Numbered from the stretch's first letter, positions 12,419-60,077 are shown. The stretch: 64,000 bases of DNA from a bacterium (GCA_030619885.1 JAUXAN010000001.1:75474-139473), one strand, 5' to 3'. The notes: generated by a model not told the origin, from the sequence alone. Program-made: numbers and translations.

Positions 12419-12447
12419 CCGTAGAGGCGCAGGGATCCGTATGGAAA
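12419..12447 (-). terminator. hairpin terminator after nadB built from a GGATCCGTATGG-family palindrome
   Basis: Minus strand reads GCAGGGtctttccatacggatcCCTGC, followed by gcctctacggTTTTCTTTTTCTTC. Confidence 0.35.
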
Positions 12448-18667: not shown

Positions 18668-19816
18668 ATGGGCGAAAATATTAAACCGAGAGAAAAGTTA
18701 TTAACCAGTGATAGTCCTAAAATGGTTGGGACAAAGGATTTGTTGGCTATTATTTTGGGGCATGGAACCAAGAAAAAAAATGTATTTGACTTAAGTAAGG
18801 AAGTAATTAGATTTCTAAGAGAAAACATGGGAAAAGAAATTAAAGTAAGTGATTTAACTCAATTTGATGGGATAGGAGAAGCAAAGGCATTACAAATTGT
18901 ATCTGCATTAGAAATTGGCAAGCGTTTTTATAAGGATAAAACGAAAATGCAGATTAAAAAGGTGGGAAATGGGGAATTGATTATAGGCGATTGTCTCGAT
19001 GTAATGCAAACTATGCCTGATAATGAAATAATATTGGCCTTTACTTCCCCACCTTATCTTAATGCTATAAATTATGAAGACCAAATCAAAAAATTGAGCG
19101 GTGAAATAAAGTATTGGGAACGCAAAGAGGTCTCTTATGACTATTATAAAAATTTCCTTATAGACCGTTTCAAAGAACTCTATCGTATTATTAAACCCGG
19201 TGGACACAATGTAGTAAATATTTCACCAATCGCTTGGAATGGAAAACGAGTTGCTTTGCCCTTTCATTTTGTAAATTGGATGGAGAGTATCGGTTGGGTA
19301 TTTAAAGAAGACATTATTTGGGAAAAGGAAATTGCCCGTGATCGCCGAAGCGGTGTTTTAATACAGCATCCATATCCCGGGTATTATTATCCCAGTTTAG
19401 TTGTGGAGTATGTTTTCGTTTTTCAAAAACCTGCAGAAAACAAAGAGCAAAATAATATCTATCATTTCCGAACAAGAAAAGAAAAAGAAGAAAATAAAAT
19501 GGACTTATCCGATTATCAGGGAGAAAAGAGCAAAAATATATGGAGAATCAGACCAGTTGCTCCCCAAGAAAATATACATCCCTGTCCATTTCCTTTAGAG
19601 TTAGCTAAGAGAGTTATACAATACTATTCATACAAGAGTGACACTGTGATTGATATTTTTACAGGAAGTGGCCAAACTAATTTAGCGGCTGAGATTTTAG
19701 GTAGAAAACATCTAGGAATTGATACTCAAGAAAAATATATTGAGTATGCAATAAAAAGAATTATTGATCAAACGAGTCAATTGCGGTTAGGGGATAGATT
19801 TGGAAATCATAGCTAA
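18668..19816 (+). CDS. DNA methyltransferase (beta-class N4-C/N6-A, PF01555-like) with an N-terminal RadC/UPF0758-type HhH domain
   Basis: N-terminal 90 aa: PREKLL..LLAIILGHGTKKKNV..L.....DGIGEAKALQI.SALEIGKR, a RadC N-terminal HhH. Motif IV TSPPY lies before the C-terminal motif I (IDIFTGSGQT), which is the beta-class order. Confidence 0.8.
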   Translation: MGENIKPREKLLTSDSPKMVGTKDLLAIILGHGTKKKNVFDLSKEVIRFLRENMGKEIKVSDLTQFDGIGEAKALQIVSALEIGKRFYKDKTKMQIKKVGNGELIIGDCLDVMQTMPDNEIILAFTSPPYLNAINYEDQIKKLSGEIKYWERKEVSYDYYKNFLIDRFKELYRIIKPGGHNVVNISPIAWNGKRVALPFHFVNWMESIGWVFKEDIIWEKEIARDRRSGVLIQHPYPGYYYPSLVVEYVFVFQKPAENKEQNNIYHFRTRKEKEENKMDLSDYQGEKSKNIWRIRPVAPQENIHPCPFPLELAKRVIQYYSYKSDTVIDIFTGSGQTNLAAEILGRKHLGIDTQEKYIEYAIKRIIDQTSQLRLGDRFGNHS

Positions 19817-42851: not shown

Positions 42852-43030
42852 CCGTGAGGTAGAATCCTTATAGTTGCACCTCCCTGGTTTTGGGTTAAAT
42901 CTTCTAACCTTTATTGAATACCGAAAACTTGGGGGTTGCAACTTTTTCATAGGTAATCCTAATGCCAAATAGTAAGGGCAGGCTTTGTGCGTCTCCTTTT
43001 TTCAATCTCATATAAATCGAGTCTAATCTT

Positions 43031-43280
43031 ACTTTCTCGCTTTCGCACGAAAGCGAGAAACTGTGGTTTCAATCCCCTACAAGTCGGGTCTTCCATCTTC
43101 GCCAAGGCTCCGACGGATTAATCCACCATAGCGAACAATAACTTCTGAGAACCGTCCCGCAGTGGTAAATCACAAGTGTCATTGCGACCCCGACTGGTCG
43201 GGGGAAGCAATCTCCTATCATTTTTGCATTCCATCATTCTAACAATCCCACTTTCTCGCTTTCGCACGAAAGCGAGAAAC
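43031..43280. mobile_element. candidate IS200/IS605-derived palindrome-associated element (PATE-like): two identical 31-bp blocks, each containing a perfect 28-bp palindrome, flanking 190 bp
   Basis: actttctcgctttcgcacgaaagcgagaaac occurs at 43031-43061 and at 43250-43280. The palindrome is tttctcgctttcg-ca-cgaaagcgagaaa. No ORF lies between the copies. Confidence 0.35.
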
Positions 43281-43588
43281 ATGAACTATGGTGGGAGAAA
43301 TATCAAATTATAAAAGCCTGACTCCCAAGGGCCAATGATGCCCTACAGGCTACTTTAACCCTAGGGGTGAAAACGCTCTTCTAAAAAGTAGCCTGTCCCC
43401 TTTATTTGCTGATTCGAAGTCCCACCCCAGGGGTGGGACTCTCGACCATTTTGGGATTTTCGGACAGCCTGCTGACTTTAATTTAACGATAACTTGGGTA
43501 AAATAAAGTTGGCAGTGACAGGGTACCTTCCTCCCAAGAGCGTCATTACCCCTCCATATTATTGTTGTCAAGTGTCAAGATTTGACCC

Positions 43589-43627
43589 TATTTGTGTATT
43601 TGTGCTATTTGTGACTATTTGTGACCC
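43589..43627. repeat. tandem TATTTGTG(A) direct repeats (4 units) next to a doubled TTGTCAAG box
   Basis: The sequence is ctatttgtgtatttgtgctatttgtgactatttgtga. Confidence 0.6.
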
Positions 43628-43656
43628 CTGTTCCCAGAGAGCACACTCCATCGTTA

Positions 43657-44760
43657 TTAATGGAGATTTTTCTCAGGTGTGGACCATAAGTTTGCCCATC
43701 GCTTTTCTCCTCTCCAATAAAATTCAAAGAAGTAATGTCCTCCTTCTCTCTCAAATCTCCCTGTCTGTGATAATTGGGTATGCAGAGGAACTACTTGCGT
43801 TAAGGTATACTCATTAGTATAATGATTATAGGAAAATTTCAATCCTACCATTCCATAAGATAAGTGCCAAATAAACCAGTAAGGACTTTTCCCCTTGATT
43901 CCACGTTCTTCATGTGGTTTGCCTAATTTATCTAAAATTTCTTTCATACTTTCTCCTAATGAAAACTCTGCATCTTGACAGCGAATACATGGCGAATCTT
44001 TAACTCTCTTTACTTTATATTTATCTTTGTCCATACGCATACATTTAGTCATATGTACATCTTTCGAGATAACTCTACCACATCTTGGACACACCTTTAT
44101 GATACCCGTCTTTATCTTAATGTACTGATGTTTATAACATCTGCCTTTTCTTATTTCATGTGTGTTATATTTGCTTCTGTACATATGTCTATATTTCTCT
44201 TTCGTTGTTATTACCTTATCAGCCTTTAAAAACTTGCCGCAAAATTCGCAGTTTCTTACCTCTCCCACAGGAACCTTCACTCTTTTATTAAGAAATTTCA
44301 TCCTAACGAGAGCGCTATCCTTGAAGGTTTCTGCTTTTTCCCCTATTTTCACAACTTTCTTATAAAGAGAATCAGCGGCTAAAGGTTTTACTGCTGATGT
44401 TCGTGGTTTTTCATAGACTTTCCCTAATCCATAGAACCCTTCAGCTAATGTGAGAGAATCTATTATTGAATCGCATTGGCAACTTTGGATACCTTTCTTA
44501 TACATATCCTCGGCTAAGGAATCATTTTCTTTGATTTCTAAGTATAACCTCCCTAATTCAAAATAAACTTTGTCTCTATCTTTATAGTCAGGAAAGCGTT
44601 CTAACATCGTTTCATAGAGGTTAATTGCTTCGTCCCAATTATGTGCATCCTCTTTTTCCTTTGCTTGTTCCAGATAATCTTCGGCTTTTTTACATCCCAG
44701 TAGAAAAACAACTAACCCTATAAAAAATAAATACAATATTCTCACAATATACTGTCTCAT
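43657..44760 (-). CDS. hypothetical lipoprotein with TPR-like N-terminal region and two CxxC...CxxC zinc-ribbon modules
   Basis: Lipobox FLLGC. CEFCG...CPRCG and CMRMD...CIRCQ cysteine pairs. No homology recognised. Confidence 0.5.
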   Translation of the reverse strand: MRQYIVRILYLFFIGLVVFLLGCKKAEDYLEQAKEKEDAHNWDEAINLYETMLERFPDYKDRDKVYFELGRLYLEIKENDSLAEDMYKKGIQSCQCDSIIDSLTLAEGFYGLGKVYEKPRTSAVKPLAADSLYKKVVKIGEKAETFKDSALVRMKFLNKRVKVPVGEVRNCEFCGKFLKADKVITTKEKYRHMYRSKYNTHEIRKGRCYKHQYIKIKTGIIKVCPRCGRVISKDVHMTKCMRMDKDKYKVKRVKDSPCIRCQDAEFSLGESMKEILDKLGKPHEERGIKGKSPYWFIWHLSYGMVGLKFSYNHYTNEYTLTQVVPLHTQLSQTGRFEREGGHYFFEFYWRGEKRWANLWSTPEKNLH

Positions 44761-44834
44761 CTTTACCTCCCTTTCGATTTATAAAGCCGGCGACCAATTT
44801 CTTTCATTCCTTTATTCTCATCTCCTTTTTTAAC

Positions 44835-44957
44835 CCCTTAAACAAAAAGGGGCACTCACATTGCTCAGCCATCCGTACGGATGACTACCGGACTAGGGAC
44901 TTAGGAGCAATAGAGCACCCCGATTTTATCGGGGCAGCTCACTTGACCCTAGTCCGG
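44835..44957. repeat. GC-rich multi-hairpin palindromic element centred on the 14-bp perfect palindrome CATCCGTACGGATG
   Basis: ccccttaaacaaaaagggg hairpin. An imperfect ~70-bp palindrome around 44870-44883. A nested ccggactaggg...ccctagtccgg pair with an inner ccccgattttatcgggg hairpin. Confidence 0.6.
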
Positions 44958-45116
44958 TTTTACCAAGCAAGTGAATTGCGAATTTAGATTTTCAAAGAAC
45001 TAGCATTAATCTTATTTACAAGAATATAGTAAATACAAAATTTTTGTCAAGCAAAATGTGAGAACCCTATGTCAAAACTTGAACCTGTAGTTTTGTAATG
45101 ATTCATCCACGGAAAT

Positions 45117-45731
45117 CTATCGCCCTATTGGATACTTTCTTATTTCTTGGTCATCACAAGACTGCATTTCATCTTTCCGTCTATTCCAGTCAGCTAGATA
45201 GCTAGCCGAGCCAATGTGATACTTTCTGGCATTAAGCACAGCGAAAAAATGAATGCGCCATTTCAGGAGTTTGCAACTGAGGACACTCTCTATTTGACCT
45301 TCGTATGGATATTGCTCCAAGTCCTTTGTTGAAAGCGGCATTTCGCCCTTAAAGTTTGCCAGAAAGGTTGCAGTCTCGTCGTCCGGTATGAAGTACCGCT
45401 GTCCCACTTTGTCAATGTAAAATCGTCTGCTATGCTCATCGCGCACCACCTGTCCCCGCAAGATGACTTCTCTGACTTTCTTGACTTCCTTATGCATACG
45501 TTCCATCTCAAGTACTCCGAGGATCTTGAGTCGTGAAAGGAATGGCAGAAAAAGGATGCCAATTCCTGCAAATAACAAGAGAAGGACATTGTTATCAACT
45601 ATGAATTCCTTCTTTGTTAACACCAAATAGAGAAATAAAAAAACAAAACACAACAGTGATAAGGCAATAGATACAATAAGTAGATGTATGTTATTCTTCT
45701 GTTCTTCTTGTTTGCCTTTATTCTGTGTCAT
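45117..45731 (-). CDS. hypothetical two-TM membrane protein with a ~120-aa cytoplasmic C-terminal domain
   Basis: Two hydrophobic helices at aa 15-65. Function unknown. Lies inside the accessory island. Confidence 0.45.
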   Translation of the reverse strand: MTQNKGKQEEQKNNIHLLIVSIALSLLCFVFLFLYLVLTKKEFIVDNNVLLLLFAGIGILFLPFLSRLKILGVLEMERMHKEVKKVREVILRGQVVRDEHSRRFYIDKVGQRYFIPDDETATFLANFKGEMPLSTKDLEQYPYEGQIESVLSCKLLKWRIHFFAVLNARKYHIGSASYLADWNRRKDEMQSCDDQEIRKYPIGR

Positions 45732-45848
45732 ATCGGTCTCCTTTATTCCAGATTCCTATAATGCAATTTCATTTAATATCTCGCATATTTAAGAAGTTGT
45801 CTAAAGCAACTTGGCAAAGTGTCGCAAATATGCTGTTCCGCAAAGTTG

Positions 45849-46514
45849 TCACACTTCCCTTGGTATATACATGCCATCTGGATACGGAAGTTTACTATTA
45901 ATGTATCGCAGAAATTTAAGGTATCTTCGCACGTCGGCGAAGAATTCGTCAAAAGTCCCAATGTCTCTGCTCTTGTAGGCATGAATTGCGTTTCGTCGTT
46001 GTTGGATGTGCTGAATCCACATATCCCAATCTTCACCCCAGATTCTTTTCCTAAAGAACTGACGCATTGGTTCCAGTTGTAAGCCATCGGGGTCTATCAA
46101 TTTTTCTTTCTTCTTGATTGCTTCGACATCGTTGTTGTAGTCTTTATACCAAACAGACAAGAACAACTTCATAGTTCCCTCCACAAGGCTTCCTAGGTTG
46201 GCCCACGCCAAGATCAATCGGCCACTCTCATTGTCTGGAAGAGGTTCTACAAGCCAGATTTTTAGACAGGCTGAGAGGGAGACCTGCCAGTCAATCCGAG
46301 ATTTGCTCAACAGTTGTGCGGCTTCAATCGGAGCCCAACCGTTTGCTTTTGTCCAAAATTGTCTTAAGCCATTGTTGAGGGTAACGATACGGTCCACGAC
46401 TTCATCGATGGATATCTTCTCATCTAGTTCAACCATAAGATCACTGGTTTCTTCAAGAATTTTGCCCAACCCATTTATATCCGAACTCGTTCGTATATAC
46501 TCCTTTTTTACCAT
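45849..46514 (-). CDS. hypothetical all-alpha protein with a possible C-terminal R-x4-H (HEPN-like) motif
   Basis: Start trimmed to MVKKEY, immediately downstream of a TTGACA-17-TAAAAT promoter. Q(R)RNAIHAY motif near the C-terminus. Assignment is speculative. Confidence 0.4.
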   Translation of the reverse strand: MVKKEYIRTSSDINGLGKILEETSDLMVELDEKISIDEVVDRIVTLNNGLRQFWTKANGWAPIEAAQLLSKSRIDWQVSLSACLKIWLVEPLPDNESGRLILAWANLGSLVEGTMKLFLSVWYKDYNNDVEAIKKKEKLIDPDGLQLEPMRQFFRKRIWGEDWDMWIQHIQQRRNAIHAYKSRDIGTFDEFFADVRRYLKFLRYINSKLPYPDGMYIPREV

Positions 46515-46632
46515 AATTTTTATTTTAAAAAATATTAAAAGTTTGTCAAATATTTCTTTTAAATTTTTATGTAAGCAGATTTGATACCTTCCACATTTTT
46601 TCAAGAGCTGACTCCGAAAAATTTAATATTTA

Positions 46633-46908
46633 TCAATAGGTTTTTTGTTTGTTATACTTGGGCGGTTTACCACCATGCTGTCTTTGATACCTTTGTATTT
46701 CCTGTTTTTCCCGTTTTTCAGCAGAATCCCTTGTTAATGCAACAGTAATAATATTTATGTGTGTAAAAGTGAGACCAGCATTGGCATTTTCGATTGCTCT
46801 CCTATTGGGATCATTTGTAATTCCATACTTGACGACTTCCTTGCCGTCTTTTAGTTCGTAGACCCGGGTATCCCTTTTAGATTCTTTGAATCTTCTGTAT
46901 GCCATCAT
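46633..46908 (-). CDS. GIY-YIG nuclease-family small protein
   Basis: RVYEL.DGKEVVKYGITNDPNRR fits GIY-(x10)-YIG spacing. 91 aa. A consensus sigma-70-type promoter (TTGACA-18-TATAAT) lies upstream. Confidence 0.6.
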   Translation of the reverse strand: MMAYRRFKESKRDTRVYELKDGKEVVKYGITNDPNRRAIENANAGLTFTHINIITVALTRDSAEKREKQEIQRYQRQHGGKPPKYNKQKTY

Positions 46909-46981
46909 TCCTCCTTTTTAGACAACCCTCAGATAAATGGTGTCAGTTCTGCCCAAGTTCTTATATTTCATAACCTTTAAT

Positions 46982-47011
46982 ATTATATCAATAAAAATAG
47001 CATTTTGTCAA
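46982..47011 (-). promoter_or_regulatory. consensus sigma-70-type promoter of the GIY-YIG gene
   Basis: Minus strand reads TTGACA-aaatgctatttttattga-TATAAT. Confidence 0.55.
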
Positions 47012-47088
47012 TACCCCCAAAATTGAAGATAGGCTAAAGGTGAAAAATTGACGCTGTCCCTATTTTCTTAAGATACATTCTGTTATTT

Positions 47089-47523
47089 CTATAGCCGCTT
47101 GTACAGTGGTAAAATAATGGGGGGCAATCCGAGTTTTACAATAGTACTATGAATAAACTCTCTAGCGTATGGCCAACTGTTATGTGGCACATTCATGTCT
47201 TTGAATACAGCAAATATATCCTTATTGATAGTTTTGCTTGAAGAGTATATCAATAATAACTCGAAGTTTATCTTAGCTATAATACTATCTTTGTTGTTCT
47301 CATCCACCATTTGATATTTAAATTTATGTGAAATCTGAAAAGATTCTGTTCCTTCATTAATCAGTTTTATATTATCAGTCAATCTGTTCTGCACAGCAAA
47401 ATTCTCAGGAATATTTTCTGGAAATACCTCTATAGTTGCCTTTTTTAAATATATATCCTCTATCTTGAGTTGTTTAATAAACTCTCTATAAACATCCGGC
47501 TTTACTTTAAATCTTTGCATCAT
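47089..47523 (-). CDS. SecB-like chaperone (TAC-system chaperone)
   Basis: 144 aa that align along the full length of E. coli SecB. The best segment is VPHNSWPYAREFIHSTIVKLGLPPIILP against SecB [27 protein letters not shown]. It is the third gene of the hicA-hicB operon. Confidence 0.75.
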   Translation of the reverse strand: MMQRFKVKPDVYREFIKQLKIEDIYLKKATIEVFPENIPENFAVQNRLTDNIKLINEGTESFQISHKFKYQMVDENNKDSIIAKINFELLLIYSSSKTINKDIFAVFKDMNVPHNSWPYAREFIHSTIVKLGLPPIILPLYKRL

Positions 47524-47532
47524 TATCCTCCA

Positions 47533-48060
47533 TTAATATGCTATAGCTTGCACTTCTCTACTCCTTACTGTCTGATCCTGCAAAGATTCCCTATATTCTT
47601 GTTTCACTTCCTCATGTTTGTGCAGGACTACTATTTTCATTGGTTTCCTTAGTATGCTTTCCGCAAAACGCCAGAGTAGAATTGCAGTTCGATATCTCTC
47701 AGAATTTAAAGTCAAAAGCATACAAATATAAGAATTAAGGCTTGTCCCTTCCTGTCGAGCACGTTCTACTAAAATTCCATGCAAAGTTTTTGGAATTCTA
47801 ACAACAAAACGACCACTATATAATTCATCCTTTTTAGGTAATGGTACTTGTCCTCCTCTTTCTAAAGTTCCCTCAATCCAAGCTCTTTTAGCTCTATTTA
47901 ACTTCTCAGGGATTTGCTCCAATGTTTTTGCATCGCACATACACCCATGAAGATCTATTACTTCCACAAAATATCCACCTTCTTCCATTTCTTCAATCTT
48001 AACTGGGTACTTCAATGACATATAATAGTCAACCAGTTTCTTTAATTCTGCTTTATTCAT
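47533..48060 (-). CDS. hicB: HicB-family antitoxin (HicB RNase-H-like domain plus RHH DNA-binding domain) with a C-terminal extension
   Basis: YPVKIEEMEEGGYFVEVIDLHGCMCDAKTLEQ is the HicB N-terminal domain. GRFVVRIPKTLHGILVERARQEGTSLNSYICMLL is the RHH. About 50 aa of extra C-terminal tail. Confidence 0.8.
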   Translation of the reverse strand: MNKAELKKLVDYYMSLKYPVKIEEMEEGGYFVEVIDLHGCMCDAKTLEQIPEKLNRAKRAWIEGTLERGGQVPLPKKDELYSGRFVVRIPKTLHGILVERARQEGTSLNSYICMLLTLNSERYRTAILLWRFAESILRKPMKIVVLHKHEEVKQEYRESLQDQTVRSREVQAIAY

Positions 48061-48328
48061 TGCTTACCTCCTTATCTATTGCATCAGCAAAAAGATTAAT
48101 AAACTTCTTTTTATATCTTTCAGGCACATCTTCGCTACTGCCATGAGGTCTCTCCAATTGAAGTGAAGGAGATTTTGAATCAGCAGGATAATAAATATTA
48201 AATATAGATCCTTCCTTGGGCTTGACGTCACCAAAACGTTTTGCAAGTCTGATCATTTCTTTAAATGAAAGTTTTTTCCAGTCATTTTTACTTTTAGCCT
48301 TTTTGCAAAGTTTCTTTATACTAGCCAT
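48053..48328 (-). CDS. hicA: HicA-family toxin (YcfA-like)
   Basis: 91 aa. S.KE.I.LAK..G.....KEGS.......S.....LERPH pattern. Overlaps hicB by 8 nt. Confidence 0.55.
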   Translation of the reverse strand: MASIKKLCKKAKSKNDWKKLSFKEMIRLAKRFGDVKPKEGSIFNIYYPADSKSPSLQLERPHGSSEDVPERYKKKFINLFADAIDKEVSNE

Positions 48329-48410
48329 ATAATATCATATATAGTATCATATTGTCAAGTTTTTTTTTACTTAAAACATCCTCAAAATTCTAATTATCTA
48401 AACTTGGGAA

Positions 48411-48612
48411 TCGGGCTGGAATCTAACTTTTCCCCAGTCGTACCCATCAATTCTCTCATCGATGTAATTTCTTTTGAACACGATGATATCAAATCTTGAC
48501 TTTTAACCATTAAACAGATTAAAAAAAGAGGATAGTTTAAGTACACCATACATTACTCCTTTCACTACCCTCCTGATGATTAATATAATATTTTTTAGAA
48601 GTTTGTCAAGGA
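48411..48612 (-). repeat. unit 1 of a duplicated ~200-bp promoter-bearing repeat
   Basis: About 85% identical to 48998-49206 over ~140 bp. On the minus strand it carries TTGACA-17-ATATTA followed by a GGAGT-ATG short ORF that is not conserved between the two copies. Confidence 0.6.
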
Positions 48613-48712
48613 AAAATCGACCTATCTTTGGATCCGTATGGAATGCCCCGAGTAAAACGAGGGGCTAATGGTCAGATTTTTCTGACCCCACGCCTTATAA
48701 CTCCTTCAAGGG
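48611..48712. repeat. copy e of element X, flanked by GTCAAG direct repeats and embedded in a longer repeat
   Basis: The copy without X (49198 onward) reads ttgtcaag|aaaaaaaggcattttgttgc. Copy e reads ttgtcaag[X]gtcaagggaaaaggcattttgttgc. Confidence 0.55.
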
Positions 48713-48869
48713 GTCAAGGGAAAAGGCATTTTGTTGCAAAAAATAGGACGTAGATTAAATCAAAGAAGGGAGGAAATCCTCTGCATGTTTTAAAAAAGTA
48801 GCCTGTCCCTTTTTTGTTTTCGTATTTTCCCTTGACAAGAATTGAATGGGATATATATAACTAATATAG

Positions 48870-49031
48870 ATGAGAAAAGAGAAGAAGAGCGTGTATATTG
48901 ATACAACGATTCCCAGTTATTATTTTGAAGACCGCAAAGATTTTCGTCTCTACAGAGAAATAACCCGTAGATGGTGGGATATAATCTCCTTATGGGGTCG
49001 CGCTGGAATCTGGAATTTAACTATTTCATAG
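48870..49031 (+). pseudogene. possible N-terminal fragment of a PIN-domain (VapC-like) toxin gene, truncated by or fused into a repeat element
   Basis: 53-codon ORF immediately after a TTGACA-17-ATATAA promoter. KSVYIDTTIPSYYFEDRKD resembles the PIN N-terminal hhhDT..h motif. The ORF runs into repeat copy 2 at about 48998. Confidence 0.3.
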
Positions 49032-49206
49032 TCATACACATTATTTCTGCCATCGACATATTTCCTTTTGAACACGATGATATCAAATCTTGACTCTTAA
49101 CCATTAAACAAATTAAAAAAATGAGGGTAGTTTAAGTACACCATACATTACTCCTTTCACTACCCTCCTGATATTTAATATAAGATATTTTAAAAATTTG
49201 TCAAGA
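48998..49206 (-). repeat. unit 2 of the duplicated ~200-bp promoter-bearing repeat
   Basis: See unit 1. On the minus strand it would drive transcription antisense to the PIN-like fragment ORF. Confidence 0.6.
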
Positions 49207-49374
49207 AAAAAAGGCATTTTGTTGCAAAAAATAGGACGCTCATACGGATCGTACGACAGATTAAATCAAGGAAAAACGAGAATATCTTTTACAATTTTAA
49301 TCCTGTTCACCCTCGCACCTAACATAGGTGCGGGGTTCATCCTGTCAAGGATATTGGGGTGAGAAGTGGAACTT

Positions 49375-55366: not shown

Positions 55367-55939
55367 TTATTTAGACCTGTATCCAGACTCGAACGCCAAT
55401 TTATTCACTTCTATCGTTTTCTTTGGAACCCTTTCTTCAATAACAGCCAGCCAATTTTCATATGCAAGTTCGATATGACGTGCCAGTACACCGAGCAGAA
55501 CAACATTTAAGGTGCGGATATTGCCTGTGCTTTTAGCAATACCTAATCCATCAATCACTACGAGATTGGATGCATGCTTTTTAATTTTATCAATCACATC
55601 TTGTGGATACTCTACTTCACCTGAGGCAACTGGTATAGGGAGAATTGCCATATCGTTGACGATAACGGTGCCATTTTTTTCAATATAAGAGAGATTCCTT
55701 AAAGCCTCTAGTTTCTCATAAGAGAGAATTATATCTGCTCCACCCTCACCAATGAGCGGCGAATGGACCTTTTCACCATATCTCACATGAGAAATTACGC
55801 TCCCACCTCGTTGTGCCATACCATGAACCTCGCTCTTCTTCATATCGTAACCAGAATTCATACAGACTTCTGCAAGGATGTCGCTTGAAAGAAGGATACC
55901 CTGTCCTCCAACTCCACATATAAGAATACTTTTGGTCAC
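55367..55939 (-). CDS. iorB: indolepyruvate/2-oxoacid:ferredoxin oxidoreductase beta/gamma-type subunit (IorB-like)
   Basis: ILICGVGGQGILLSSDILAEV...SEVHGMAQRGGSV.SHVR motif. 190 aa. No alpha-subunit gene is adjacent. Confidence 0.75.
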   Translation of the reverse strand: MTKSILICGVGGQGILLSSDILAEVCMNSGYDMKKSEVHGMAQRGGSVISHVRYGEKVHSPLIGEGGADIILSYEKLEALRNLSYIEKNGTVIVNDMAILPIPVASGEVEYPQDVIDKIKKHASNLVVIDGLGIAKSTGNIRTLNVVLLGVLARHIELAYENWLAVIEERVPKKTIEVNKLAFESGYRSK

Positions 55940-55974
55940 ATCTAAAATATATCTTAACGACCAAAAATTGTCAA

Positions 55975-56131
55975 GAAAAATCGACCTATCTCTGGATCCG
56001 TATGGAATGTACCGAGTGAACCGAGGTGCTAATGGTCAGATTTTTTCCATACGGATCCCATATCCCTACGGATCCGTATGGACGGGTCTGCGACCGTAGG
56101 GACTGACCCCATGCTTTATACCTCCTTCAAG
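55975..56131. repeat. copy f of a ~100-bp GGATCCGTATGG-containing repeat (element X), itself carrying a ~56-bp palindromic insert
   Basis: Aligns base-for-base with 48611-48712. An extra segment ccatacggatcccatatccctacggatccgtatggacgggtctgcgaccgtaggga sits in the loop of the ggtcaga/tctgacc hairpin. Confidence 0.65.
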
Positions 56132-56338
56132 GAGAGTGTTGAAAAAACCATCAATGAGTTTCGGCAGGGGTATTTGGTTCCCTTGCTCCTAACTTTACGA
56201 ATGTCGCTTAGTATCCGTATGTCTTTCATACTAAAAGGGTTAGCCAAAGTGACGGGTTTTGTGCCAAGGATTGTCGACGGATCTGCACTCACCAAAAACC
56301 CCTGCCTTCTTTATGGGAAAAGGTTTTTCAACACTCTC
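56132..56338. mobile_element. 207-bp MITE-like element with 17/18-bp terminal inverted repeats and a 5-bp TCAAG target-site duplication
   Basis: Left end is gagagtgttgaaaaaacc. Right end is ggtttttcaacactctc, its reverse complement with one A fewer. Flanked by TCAAG at 56127-56131 and 56339-56343. The paralogous copy at 48706-48718 shows the uninterrupted ccttcaag|gggtcaag site. Confidence 0.7.
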
Positions 56339-56476
56339 TCAAGGGGTCAAGAAAAAAGAAACTACAGTTTTCACAGATTAAATCACAGGGGAAAGTCCGC
56401 AGGATGCTGTGCAGAAGAATTAGGGGATAGGATTCAATGACTTCCGAGAACCGTCCCCAATAGGTCCATAAAGACT

Positions 56477-58219
56477 CTACCTTATCAATATCATCTTACT
56501 CGTATATCGAAAATCACCTGAAGACAACTGATAGAAGTAAACGCCATCTGGAACTGCTCTTCCAGATTCATCCCTGCCATTCCAGACTACTGAATACATG
56601 GAAGACCAAGGATGTTGACACGGAGTGACACGGAAAGTATGGACAAGGCGTCCGGATGTATCGTATATCTTCAAATTTACGTTATTCGTCTTTCGTTCAT
56701 CGTTCATCGAAGGTAACGAATAACTAATAACGGTGAACGAATTGAATGGATTCGGATAGTTTTGTGCAAGTTCAGTTGGAGTAGAAGGCACACCATAAAC
56801 TGTAACCATCATCGGACCCCACCAGGTTGTATTTCCATAAGCATCAACATCTCCCAATTTGTAATAGTATGTTATTCCAGCAGTGACATCGGTATCAGTA
56901 TATGAATATTCCTGAGCATATGGTGTAGAGCCTTGCGACTTGATTCTTACGACTTCTTCGTATCCGCCATCCCTTTCACTTGAACGGACAATTACCCATT
57001 CGTATGTATCGATCTCACTCTCCGTCCGCCACTTCAAGACAACCTTAGCGTTAAATGATTCACCAGTGAAGGAAGTGAGTTCTACACCCATAGAAGTAGG
57101 CGAATATTTTACAGTATAATAGTCCTCATTTCCGCCTATATACGATTGACCTGTCACGATTATGTTGCCCGACCCGTCAACTGCGACATCCCATGCTCTA
57201 TCATTATTCCCGTTATCTACTGTATCTGACCAGATTATGTTACCATCCGAGTCATACTTAACCGTATAATAGTCCCAATTTCCGCCTATATTCGAACCTC
57301 CTGTCACGATTATATTGCCCGCTCCGTCAACCGCCACTCCATTAGCATAATCATTGTTTCCATTATCTACTGTATCTGACCAGATTATGTTACCATCCGG
57401 GTCATACTTAACCGTATAATAGTCCCAATTTCCGCTTATACTCGAACCTCCTGTCACGATTATATTGCCCGCTCCGTCAACCGCCACTCCATTAGCATAG
57501 TCATTGTTTCCATTATCGATTGTATCTGCCCAGATTATGTTACCGCTCGAATTATACTTAACCGTATAATAGTCCCAATTTCCGCTTATAACCGATCTGC
57601 CTGTCACGATTATATTGCCAGCACTGTCAACCGCTACACCCAAAGCCCAATCATCGGCTCCATTATCGATTGTGTCTGCCCAGAGTATAGTCCCACCCGT
57701 ATCATACTTGACCGTATAATAATCGTAACCTACGCCTATATTCGATCTGCCTGTCACGATTATATTGTCTGCTCCATCAACTGCTACATCCCAAAACAAT
57801 TCATCGCTCCCATTATCAATTGTATCTGCCCAGATTATGGTGCCGCCCGGATCATACTTAACCGTATAACAATCCCAATTTGCGCCTGTACCAGAGCGAC
57901 CTGTCACGATTATATTGCCCGCTCTGTCAACTGCTACTCCATAACCATAATCCCAATTCCCGTTATCGATTGTATCTGTCCAGATTATGTTATCATCCGG
58001 GCCATACTTGACCGTATAATAGTCCGCGTTTCCTATATATGAAACACCTGCCACGATTATGTTGTCAACACTGTCAACTACTACACCGTAAGCTTCATCA
58101 ATACTCCCGTTATCAATTGTACCTGTCCATACTATTTTGTAATCATCTGCGTTCAGAGGTGCACTTGCAAAGGCTACGAGCGTAATTGCTAACCCACTCA
58201 AAAATTTATAGATACGCAT
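56477..58219 (-). CDS. secreted protein with eight SBBP-type beta-propeller repeats and a T9SS C-terminal sorting domain
   Basis: Start trimmed to MRIYKF (signal peptide, AGAGG RBS). Eight units of YYTVKYD..GNIIW.DT.DNG..D.A.GVAVD.AGNIIVTG.S. C-terminal NYPNPFNSFTVIS...LKIYDTSGRLV...GVYFYQL. Confidence 0.8.
   Translation of the reverse strand: MRIYKFLSGLAITLVAFASAPLNADDYKIVWTGTIDNGSIDEAYGVVVDSVDNIIVAGVSYIGNADYYTVKYGPDDNIIWTDTIDNGNWDYGYGVAVDRAGNIIVTGRSGTGANWDCYTVKYDPGGTIIWADTIDNGSDELFWDVAVDGADNIIVTGRSNIGVGYDYYTVKYDTGGTILWADTIDNGADDWALGVAVDSAGNIIVTGRSVISGNWDYYTVKYNSSGNIIWADTIDNGNNDYANGVAVDGAGNIIVTGGSSISGNWDYYTVKYDPDGNIIWSDTVDNGNNDYANGVAVDGAGNIIVTGGSNIGGNWDYYTVKYDSDGNIIWSDTVDNGNNDRAWDVAVDGSGNIIVTGQSYIGGNEDYYTVKYSPTSMGVELTSFTGESFNAKVVLKWRTESEIDTYEWVIVRSSERDGGYEEVVRIKSQGSTPYAQEYSYTDTDVTAGITYYYKLGDVDAYGNTTWWGPMMVTVYGVPSTPTELAQNYPNPFNSFTVISYSLPSMNDERKTNNVNLKIYDTSGRLVHTFRVTPCQHPWSSMYSVVWNGRDESGRAVPDGVYFYQLSSGDFRYTSKMILIR
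57034..58144 (-). repeat. eight tandem ~138-bp coding repeats (SBBP repeat units) inside the T9SS cargo gene
   Basis: Near-identical DNA blocks (e.g. ccgtataatagtcccaatttccgc...ctgtcacgattatattgcc) recur with ~138-bp periodicity. Confidence 0.8.
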
Positions 58220-58334
58220 ACTACCTCTTTTTCCCATCTCTACCTTTATATATATATATATTATAAACTGAGTATAAACGAAATGTAAATTTCTGGCAAA
58301 GAAGAGATAGCAGATAGGGGTCAACAGGCTGACC

Positions 58335-60077
58335 ATGAAGGTCTTGACACTTGATAGAAGTTTTTTAATACTGTTTGAGATGAAGTTGGTTCTGTTTTTC
58401 GCTATTTTAGCACTCTATATCTCTACACTCTGTCCCACTGTCGTGTTCATCGATTCAGGAGAGTTGACTACCGTTTCATATACCCTCGGTATTGCACACC
58501 CAACAGGTTATCCACTCTATACCATAATGGGAAGAATGTTTACTTTGATACCTTTCGGAAATGTTGCACTTAGAGTAAATCTGCTCTCTGCAATCCTCTC
58601 AGCACTTACTATTGTTATCCTTTATAGTTTAATATCGCTCTGCCTTGGAAGTTCATCTCTTTTCCCCCTTTTAGGTTCCCTGCTTTTCGCTTTCTCTTAT
58701 GTTTTCTGGCGAAACTCCACAGTGGCGGAGGTATATCCACTAACAACCTTTTTCACCGCTCTGTTACTTCTCATCTTTGTAAAATGGCAAAGAAAAAAAG
58801 AGACGCATATCTTATACCTGCTCTTCTTTCTCATCGGGCTGGCTTTCTGTAACCATCTGATAATCTTTACAGCGTCAGTGCCAGTTGCAGTCTTTGTTCT
58901 CAAAGAGAAACGCCCGCTATTCGATAAACATCTTTTTAATCTGTGCGTGTTGTTCATTTTAGGACTCTCGTTATACCTTTACCTCCCAATCCGTGCAACA
59001 AGAGAACCTCTTTTGAACTGGGGAAATCCTACGGTATTTGAAAGATTCATCTGGCATATAACAGGCAAGCAGTACAGGGTGTGGATGTTTTCCCAATCCG
59101 TACCTATTTTAGGCAAAAGGCTTTATAATTATGTAAGACTTCTTTTTGAACAGTATCCACCATATATTCTATGGATTGCTCCCTTGGGCATAATCGAGAG
59201 TGTGAGGAAGTTAAAGCTGATCGGCTGGGTAATGCTGAGCACTTTCCTGCTCAATATCTTCTATTCGATAAACTACGACATACCAGATATAGACTCTTAT
59301 TTTCTCATCTCATTTTTAATCGTATCAATATGGTTGGGGTTCGGATTTAATAGACTTTTCACCTCCATCTTCCGTTTGAAAAAATTCGCATACATTCTGT
59401 TAGGACTCTGTTTAATCCCTGCAATTAAAAATTACCCGAGGGTGAACCAGAGAAAAAATTATATCGCATACAACTATGGTATGAATGTTCTAAAATCTGT
59501 AAAGCATAACGGGATTGTCCTGACAAATCTGTGGGATATTTATTCACCCATACTCTATATAAGGTATGTAGAAAATAAAAGAAGAGATGTAGTTATGATA
59601 GATAAAGAACTGTTGAGAAGGTCGTGGTATTTCAAATATTTAAATAGAGAATACCCATGGCTGATAGAAGACTCAAAACTTGAGGTGAAAGATTACCTGA
59701 AACTATTGGATGACTTTGAACATAATAGACTGAAAGACCCTAATGAGATACAGAGAAACTTTATAAGAATGATAGACAGTTTCATCTACAAAAACATCAG
59801 TGAAAGACCTGTTTATACAACATTTGTAAATGGATATGACAGAGATATCAGAGAAATTGCACCGAGCCTCTTCAGAATACCCCACGGGTTGATTTTCCAA
59901 TTCGATTCCACCGAGTCATACACCCCTTTCTCTTACGATTCTTTTGACTTGAGTGGGATATTTGATGAATCGGTCTATAAAGACAAAAGGACAAAGATTT
60001 TAATTTCAAATTATCCGAAGATGATGAGATTGAGGGAGCTATGGCTTCAAAAAATTGGAAAATATGAAACTCATTGA
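58335..60077 (+). CDS. DUF2723-family polytopic membrane protein (GT-C-like putative glycosyltransferase)
   Basis: N-terminal TL.PTV.F.DSGE...S..LG.AHPTGYPLY...GR.F signature. At least 10 TM helices. The start may instead be at MKLVLFF. Confidence 0.65.
   Translation: MKVLTLDRSFLILFEMKLVLFFAILALYISTLCPTVVFIDSGELTTVSYTLGIAHPTGYPLYTIMGRMFTLIPFGNVALRVNLLSAILSALTIVILYSLISLCLGSSSLFPLLGSLLFAFSYVFWRNSTVAEVYPLTTFFTALLLLIFVKWQRKKETHILYLLFFLIGLAFCNHLIIFTASVPVAVFVLKEKRPLFDKHLFNLCVLFILGLSLYLYLPIRATREPLLNWGNPTVFERFIWHITGKQYRVWMFSQSVPILGKRLYNYVRLLFEQYPPYILWIAPLGIIESVRKLKLIGWVMLSTFLLNIFYSINYDIPDIDSYFLISFLIVSIWLGFGFNRLFTSIFRLKKFAYILLGLCLIPAIKNYPRVNQRKNYIAYNYGMNVLKSVKHNGIVLTNLWDIYSPILYIRYVENKRRDVVMIDKELLRRSWYFKYLNREYPWLIEDSKLEVKDYLKLLDDFEHNRLKDPNEIQRNFIRMIDSFIYKNISERPVYTTFVNGYDRDIREIAPSLFRIPHGLIFQFDSTESYTPFSYDSFDLSGIFDESVYKDKRTKILISNYPKMMRLRELWLQKIGKYETH

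Follow-up and report, generated by a model that had tools for sequence, protein, structure and literature searches.

MITEs derived from IS1182-family elements and bounded by 4-bp direct repeats are already described, and they are an ordinary kind of bacterial mobile DNA. The MITEs of ISMac2, an IS1182-family element of Methanosarcina acetivorans, are 160-169 bp long and have 25-26-bp inverted repeats and 4-bp direct repeats (Kamoun et al., 2013; PMC3852290).

The 64,000-nt stretch of DNA analyzed here (the window) is ordinary chromosome of an uncultivated bacterium, carrying dxs, dxr, rpoD, dnaG, fabF, rnc and so on. It contains a 207-bp block that is very probably an IS1182-family-derived MITE, inserted recently upstream of iorB and presumably trans-mobilized by a family transposase encoded elsewhere. 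The original prediction had read this block as a MITE with a target-site duplication (TSD) inserted inside another repeat; orthologous empty sites, a sibling copy and IS1182-type termini bear out this reading, which is built on an insertion polymorphism, terminal inverted repeats (TIRs), a target duplication, a second copy and identity of the termini with those of autonomous IS1182-family elements, all of them observed.

The 207-bp Element and Its Surroundings

Two minus-strand genes are separated by a 537-bp spacer that contains the MITE; the insertion is ~140 bp past the stop codon of the preceding gene and ~160 bp upstream of the iorB -35 box. The features of this region are as follows.

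55367-55939, minus strand: iorB-like ORF (indolepyruvate:ferredoxin oxidoreductase beta-subunit), Pfam POR family
55946-55974, minus strand: predicted iorB promoter, sigma-70-type, TTGACA-17-TATATT, 11/12; MITE ~160 bp upstream
55976-56131, no strand: left part of host repeat copy f, which resumes at 56339-56345 after the MITE
56127-56131, no strand: left copy of the TSD, TCAAG; single TCAAG in empty sites
56132-56338, no strand: 207-bp non-autonomous MITE with IS1182-type termini; at the iorB-upstream locus, filled in the window strain only
56132-56149, plus strand: left TIR, GAGAGTGTTGAAAAAACC, 15/18 identical to the ISGdi16 end
56322-56338, minus strand: right TIR, GGTTTTTCAACACTCTC as read on the plus strand, ending at 56338
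56339-56343, no strand: right copy of the TSD, TCAAG; single TCAAG in empty sites
56477-58336, minus strand: repeat-rich secreted protein with a Por/FlgD-type C-terminal domain, the gene upstream of the spacer

The 207-bp block with 17/18-bp inverted-repeat ends described in the original prediction is found at 56132-56338: the outer 15 nt of the TIRs are perfectly complementary, and 17 of 18 positions match when a 1-nt slip in the A-run (A6/A5) is allowed. The duplicated TCAAG, also predicted, directly abuts both ends (56127-56131 and 56339-56343). With up to three mismatches, the TIR 18-mer has two sites in the 64-kb window, both of them the MITE ends, and none of 100 dinucleotide shuffles yields two matches.

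The small size (207 bp, against a usual limit of ~500 bp) and the absence of coding capacity are those of a MITE. The sole ORF that crosses the element begins outside it, and a search of the protein database with this ORF, made in order to find other copies, returned 0 homologues; between the window and the sibling copy described below, the open frame through the MITE differs by 7 amino-acid changes versus 3 silent changes (two sequences read). BLAST searches of plasmids with the 207 bp gave chance matches only, and a literature search for the TIR strings gave nothing relevant. In agreement with the prediction that the window has no transposase gene, none was detected among the 38 window ORFs tested, and no cognate transposase with GAGAGTGTTGAAAAAACC ends was found in these ORFs or in viral contigs, where scans with the 15-mer and 18-mer TIR returned single chance matches with no partner TIR within 2.6-4 kb.

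Sibling Copy and Termini of the IS1182 Clade

The gapped TIR pattern AGTGTTGAAAAA-N162-192-TTTTTCAACACT, in which the outer 3 nt and the flanks are left free, detects a sibling of the MITE in the metagenome collection (L194:867-1073; Ga0114921_10102963), and the source sample (3300009150) also holds a contig of a related strain (L145). The sibling is 94.7% identical to the window MITE across its full length of 207 bp; the two agree throughout positions 1-49 and 187-207, and all 11 differences are internal. The neighbors of the sibling are a CapD-like epimerase gene on one side and a NusG/UpxY-like gene on the other, at a locus unrelated to iorB, and its flanks read CATA/GAGAGTG...CACTCTC/CATA (slashes here and below mark insertion junctions), i.e., a 4-bp duplication. 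Conserved termini and a TSD of its own are therefore found at another genomic copy with different flanks, as expected in the original prediction. These two copies are the only ones known in the lineage.

The same pattern recovers 20 loci in reference genomes and 64 in metagenomes, which are TIR-bounded, ~190-216 bp long and mostly from Alphaproteobacteria, with others from Gammaproteobacteria, Chloroflexota, Zixibacteria, Spirochaetia and further groups; their interiors are unrelated to that of the window MITE. At nearly all of these loci, the inverted repeat runs exactly 3 nt further (GAT/GAG ... ATC/CTC). Of 78 non-redundant elements, 34 have a perfect 4-bp direct repeat that directly abuts the GAK...MTC ends, compared with 0-4 at other offsets. 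Alphaproteobacterial MITEs of this type (L001-L020 and L148-L211) have a constant length of 211-213 bp and unalignable interiors, and are often inserted in partly palindromic GC-rich targets (CGCTTnnGGCC/GGCCnnAAGCG). In the chromids of Sinorhizobium and Rhizobium, one MITE copy is kept across species at 75-90% identity. Related 163-bp elements with GGCC and GACC duplications are present on the Azotobacter plasmid pAcX50c; a link of these elements to res sites was considered, as resolvase genes adjoin, and was rejected because each has its own 4-bp duplication.

In one metagenome contig (L206), a full-length IS (~438-1972) with ends GATTTCGTTGAAAAAC and GATTGTGTTGAAAAAC is located beside a MITE. 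Its ORF (L206:523-1896) encodes a protein of 457 aa with a score of 409 bits against the NCBIfam model NF033551 ('IS1182 family transposase'; cut-off 270) and a weaker match to an NCBIfam IS5 model, the two families being related. The inverted repeat of this IS may reach ~11 nt further out, and its flanks are inverted, not direct. In L206:212-1976, the 218-bp MITE and the full-length IS1182-family element are arranged head to tail with CGTC between them, and GACG direct repeats are found on the outer flanks of the pair, which as a whole may have moved as a composite unit.

When the 457-aa protein was used as a query against annotated plasmids, the following IS ends were extracted.

ISMno9: ends GATTCTGTTGAAAAACTC / GATTTCGTTGAAAAACTC; duplication CGCC
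ISGdi16: ends GATAGTGTTGAAAAAGTC / ...CTC; duplication GGTC
ISShsp2: ends GATGCCGTTGAAAAAGTC / GATACCG...; duplication TCCC
Unnamed Sinorhizobium IS1182 element: ends GATAGTGTTGAAAAAGTCAGG; duplication GGTG
ISCfr1: ends GATTCTGTTGAAAAAGTAGC; duplication GGCC

The window MITE termini, GAGAGTGTTGAAAAA, match the ends of these five full-length IS1182-family ISs, all of which have ends of the form GAT nnn GTTGAAAAA and 4-bp duplications. The L206 IS is the sixth full-length element with ends of this clade, and when the six are compared with GAGAGTGTTGAAAAA, GTTGAAAAA is found at positions 7-15 in 11 of the 12 ends. The left TIR of the window MITE (GAGAGTGTTGAAAAAACC) is identical at 15 of 18 positions to the ISGdi16 end GATAGTGTTGAAAAAGTC and has GA...GTTGAAAAA in common with the ends of ISMno9, ISShsp2, ISCfr1, the Sinorhizobium element and the L206 IS. 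Overall, the terminal consensus of the clade, GA(T/G)nnnGTTGAAAAA, is present in the window MITE. The ends of a distant member of the family, from Listeria, are quite unlike these, indicating that the TIR motif marks a clade and not the whole IS1182 family. The full-length clade ISs found are all from Proteobacteria, whereas the organism of the window is uncultivated and probably non-proteobacterial, which counts against the IS1182 reading. For a partial match in Rhizobium sp. NXC24 and for single copies of Sinorhizobium pSymB type, no transposase was found at those sites.

Length of the Target Duplication

The duplication of the window copy is 5 bp (TCAAG); at the canonical offset, no 4-bp duplication can be read. 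The 4-bp TSD that characterizes the clade is present in the sibling (CATA), and in the survey above 5-bp duplications occur in 3 of 78 elements versus 34 of 78 for 4-bp duplications. The stagger might thus vary by 1 nt, or there might be an extra base at one junction of the window copy. This anomaly lowers nothing essential in the MITE reading, although the two copies, with 5 and 4 bp, point in different directions on the 4-bp TSD of the clade.

The 5-bp duplication, which is not the 4 bp of IS1182-clade elements, could instead point to a MITE derived from or mobilized by another IS family with GGnnnTGTTGnAAA-type ends or 5-bp duplications, such as the IS5 group, IS6/IS26, ISAzo13 or the Tn3-type TIMEs. 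The ends of IS6/IS26 (GGCACTGTTGCAAA) and IS5-type ends may resemble those of the MITE, a resemblance that serves as a lead only, and the weaker IS5 match of the L206 transposase is in the same direction. Tn3 elements and TIMEs have inverted repeats of ~38 bp that start with GGGG and make 5-bp duplications, and IS6 makes 8-bp duplications. Such an origin is improbable: full-length elements found with GA(T/G)nnnGTTGAAAAA ends are all of the IS1182 family (by NCBIfam or PGAP naming), the duplication of the sibling is 4 bp, and neither the 8-bp duplications of IS6 nor the 38-bp GGGG ends of Tn3/TIMEs are seen at the MITE. Tn3-derived TIMEs agree with the window copy in the 5-bp duplication but not in the TIR, which in the MITE has 15-18 bp and begins with GAGAG.

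The TA target duplication of the IS630/Tc1-mariner type is not seen at the flanks of either copy, which are TCAAG (window) and CATA (sibling). Likewise, a reading of GA-TA-GTG in the related elements as the TA duplication of an IS630-type element was rejected, because the 4-bp repeats are in direct and not inverted orientation and are located outside GAT...ATC. Within IS66-family transposase genes of Aeromonas and of enterobacterial plasmids, the TIR probe has a 25-bp match, which was dismissed as chance because it falls in the coding region and not at the end of an element.

Fold of the Element

The plus strand of the MITE is predicted to fold into a long hairpin of -71.4 kcal/mol (z = -4.95) and the minus strand into one of -67.6 kcal/mol (z = -4.5), and an inner inverted repeat is present at 56163-56178/56291-56306. 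Such a hairpin and inner repeat would suit a structured non-coding RNA gene or regulatory RNA element with a long terminal stem, for which mobility would be secondary. This is very unlikely, as both strands fold equally well, which is what a DNA palindrome predicts, the MITE is dispensable in three sister strains (see below), and elements of other taxa with the same termini have unrelated interiors. Also, the Rfam 15 covariance models gave 0 matches at the gathering score in the whole window, and a scan of 20 related loci gave nothing relevant, the only matches being a group II intron and a tRNA elsewhere.

Empty Sites in Related Strains

Three related strains, each from a different metagenome (L144, JGI 3300028822; L146, ENA ERZ27251113; L147, JGI 3300024263), are collinear with the window on both sides of the MITE at 97-99% nucleotide identity. 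All three hold repeat f, reading CCTCCTTCAAG/GGGTCAAGAAAAAAG (alignments A1 and A2), and their iorB-upstream regions contain the exact empty site CCTTCAAG/GGGTC. The missing DNA is precisely 212 bp, corresponding to the 207 bp plus one TCAAG, and TCAAG is present twice in the window and once each in the three strains and in copy e of the host repeat. The iorB-like protein has a 98% identical relative (P0001), the cluster of which includes P0122, encoded on a 157-kb NCBI contig and equal in sequence to the iorB-like protein of the window.

The comparison of related strains for presence or absence proposed in the original prediction thus gives a clear result: the MITE is absent and the empty site is exact in all three. 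The insertion is polymorphic between strains, and its empty site is a textbook one. The paralogous empty site on which the prediction was based also stands, as copy e reads ccttcaag/gggtcaag without interruption at 48703-48718; the orthologous empty sites are stronger evidence than this paralogous one. That the MITE is private to the window strain and has a 95%-identical sibling elsewhere in the lineage indicates that the insertion is recent.

Presence or absence alone gives no direction, and 5-bp repeats are found on both flanks, as would also be the case if the block were ancestral and not necessarily mobile, and had been deleted from the other strains and from copy e by slippage between the TCAAG repeats. 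An identical precise deletion would then be needed in three strains and a paralogue, and neither the sibling, with its identical termini, other flanks and other short duplication, nor the identity of the termini with those of autonomous IS elements fits such a history, which is accordingly highly improbable. Hardly credible is an assembly artefact, by which the 157-kb metagenome-assembled contig containing the window, repeats being prone to assembly error, would misjoin reads of a repeat at the iorB-upstream locus, since the junctions are clean and the target, intact elsewhere, is duplicated, as transposition and not a misjoin would produce, and both flanks are collinear with three other assemblies.

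The iorB Promoter Region

The sequence GTCAAGRAAAAA is the reverse complement of TTTTTYCTTGAC, which combines the T-tract and the -35 promoter box of this organism. It occurs 18 times in the window (2.1 expected) and also marks equally good promoter-like sites at 48609-48582 and 49204-49177. GTCAAG, as the reverse complement of the -35 box, is therefore a promoter element and not a shared target. In addition, the sibling MITE is inserted in CATA, and the proposal that the small elements of this region were all using TCAAG-like targets is therefore not supported.

Insertion of the MITE leaves the core iorB promoter intact, and would probably be neutral or near-neutral for iorB expression. As a speculation, if transcription proceeds through the spacer from the upstream gene, the MITE would add a very stable RNA hairpin. 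The predicted -10 box TATATT (55951-55946) ends 6 nt before the GTG start codon (55939) of the iorB-like gene, which has no Shine-Dalgarno sequence, suggesting that the iorB mRNA may be leaderless. The secreted protein encoded on the other side of the spacer is built of tandem 'NIIVTG...DYYTVKY' units and has 619 aa in the window (56477-58336) versus 336 aa in L144 (L144:8720-9730), indicating that the repeat number varies between strains.

The Host Repeat and Its Hairpin Module

The MITE is inserted in copy f of a ~100-bp repeat, which together with its paralogue and the strain-specific insertions has the following features.

48611-48712, no strand: host repeat copy e, paralogue with intact ccttcaag/gggtcaag, within a 6.4-kb strain-specific island
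56046-56102 (57 nt), no strand: palindromic block in the loop of the GGTCAGA/TCTGACC hairpin, a 20-bp unit split by 37 bp
56057-56093, no strand: 37-bp strain-specific insertion CCCATATCCCTACGGATCCGTATGGACGGGTCTGCGA, absent from L144, L146 and L147
56396-56413, no strand: 18-bp insertion TCCGCAGGATGCTGTGCA elsewhere in this intergenic region, also strain-specific (not in L144, L146 or L147)

As originally described, copy f aligns with copy e; the alignment has two segments that flank the loop insert, one of 71 bp at 91.5% identity and one of 30 bp at 90%. Direct repeats of 11 bp (GTCAAGAAAAA), which correspond to the promoter box, enclose copy f at 55970-55980 and 56346-56356. The repeat had been taken to have multiple copies; e and f are full, and the others share only the 12-14-nt motif GGATCCGTATGG(AA). 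Copy e is indeed located between GTCAAG direct repeats (GTCAAGG(A/G)AAAA), and the paralogous segment at 49198 is without the ~107 bp between them. Of the claim that the repeat is itself an inserted layer, the presence at 48611 and the absence at 49198 hold; insertion does not follow from them, because deletion between the 11-bp direct repeats fits equally well. The ~100-bp repeat has no TIRs and belongs to a larger module, the hairpin of which varies in its loop: in the related strain L235, the same architecture is found without the left part, i.e., the variable-loop hairpin, then GTCAAGAAAAAAGAAACCAC, then AGATTAAATCA. A mini-ORF with a Shine-Dalgarno-like AAGGAGG within the repeat was rejected because the frame is not conserved between copies and strains. 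Repeat f of L146 contains a 24-bp tandem duplication (ATGTACCGAGTAAAACGAGGAGCT-like; L146:1145-1240), another sign of an unusually unstable spacer.

The palindromic insert reported in the hairpin loop is present, yet it is 57 nt, not 56, and represents two nested events, of which the 20 bp are shared between strains and the 37 bp are strain-specific. The 20-bp palindrome TCCATACGGAT/CCGTAGGGA is found in repeat f of all four strains, and copy e is without the insert; the 37-bp insertion at the center of the palindrome contains the unit a second time, inverted, together with 4-6 and 11 nt of novel sequence. The first 10 nt of the 18-bp insertion at 56396-56413 are the reverse complement of ATCCTGCGGA, located beside a GGATCC motif in L194, and both this insertion and the 19-bp CTCATACGGATCGTACGAC at 49232-49250 belong to the same motif group as the loop insert.

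The hairpin stem GGTCAG(A/G)...(T/C)CTGACC(CC) is conserved (window 56034-56108; L144:9838-9965; L235:2038-2141), and the loop has 4 nt in copy e, 24 nt in L144, L146 and L147, 61 nt in window copy f and 58 nt in L235. The motif GGATCCGTATGG, with the core palindrome TACGGATCCGTA, is found in the window at 12433, 40049, 48630 and 55994, and also at L194:1166-1178. All four window instances are 20-29 nt upstream of a TTGAC -35 hexamer, and the downstream genes are those of an MscS-like channel, an ECF sigma factor, a small ORF and iorB. This fixed spacing suggests a transcription-factor binding site, not a transposon relic.

GGTCAG-loop-CTGACCCC ... GTCAAGAAAAAAGAAACCAC ... AGATTAAATCA together with the GGATCCGTATGG palindromes might constitute undescribed promoter-proximal mobile or recombining modules, an idea that is offered tentatively and is more likely wrong than right by a wide measure. 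If true, the iorB-upstream region would be more than a passive site of insertion, and the idea would cover the loop sizes of 4, 24, 61 and 58 nt among copies and strains, as well as the entry of palindromes into hairpin loops and into each other by strain-specific events of 18-37 bp. As the module abuts the -35 box and the motif is 20-29 nt upstream, such a module could spread a regulator-binding site round the genome.

Copy e is located in a strain-specific island of 6.4 kb (42855-49241), which contains HicAB-like toxin-antitoxin genes, a gene for a TPR protein, several ORFs without a Pfam match and a duplicated ~210-bp promoter segment. The Logan contigs L235 and L236 are 99% identical to the window on both sides of the island and have 104 bp between the PDZ-protein and PALP-enzyme genes. 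Elsewhere in the window, an ORF at 18668-19816 encodes an N6/N4 DNA-methylase domain and, at the N terminus, a UPF0758 (RadC-like) domain, and a 378-aa ORF without a Pfam match follows it in a low-GC stretch (0.35); this region may be a restriction-modification or defense islet.

Proposed Mechanism and Implications

For the MITE upstream of iorB, an IS1182-family DDE transposase, encoded outside the window elsewhere in the genome, would recognize the GAGAGTGTTGAAAAA termini and move the element into CCTTCAAG/GGGTC within the promoter-upstream repeat, ~160 bp upstream of the iorB -35 box. Repair of a staggered cut in the target would then leave TCAAG duplicated. Trans-mobilization would depend on a cognate transposase in this genome, presumably acting by the DDE mechanism, and an IS1182-clade transposase at work in the lineage is implied.

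The locus documents an IS1182-type MITE that is, or was until recently, active in an uncultivated lineage. Natural populations contain both filled and empty alleles, which can be used as a clean strain marker. More broadly, the GAKAGTGTTGAAAAA terminus is the mark of ~200-bp MITEs that have 4-bp duplications, are very widespread and are tied to one IS1182 clade, and it helps to annotate intergenic repeats. Concepts of how MITEs work are unchanged by these findings.

Comparison With Known Systems

The 20-bp and 37-bp loop inserts resemble REP/REPIN sequences in being short imperfect palindromes that are intergenic, strain-variable and nested in hairpin loops. Unlike REP/REPIN, the loop palindromes have too few copies for a family, and the motif is at a fixed distance from -35 boxes, suggesting a protein-binding site instead; no RAYT-type gene or domain was detected among the window ORFs scanned.

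The MITE itself is like the ISMac2 MITEs (PMC3852290), to which it is likened by description, in that it is short and non-coding, has inverted repeats and is attributed to the IS1182 family. The ISMac2 MITEs differ in having an archaeal host and a partner IS in the same genome, and the window copy differs from them in its 5-bp duplication. The ~212-bp elements of Alphaproteobacteria and the 163-bp elements of pAcX50c are intergenic elements of similar length with the same type of terminal 15-mer; they have 4-bp duplications, are multi-copy in some genomes and have interiors unlike that of the window MITE. The ISs of the ISGdi16/ISMno9/ISShsp2/ISCfr1 clade are 1.53-1.62 kb long, encode a transposase of ~457 aa, start with GAT and have 4-bp TSDs, whereas the window MITE is 207 bp long, has an unrelated interior, starts with GAG and made a 5-bp duplication. 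With these ISs it shares the termini GA(T)nnnGTTGAAAAA(G/C)T.
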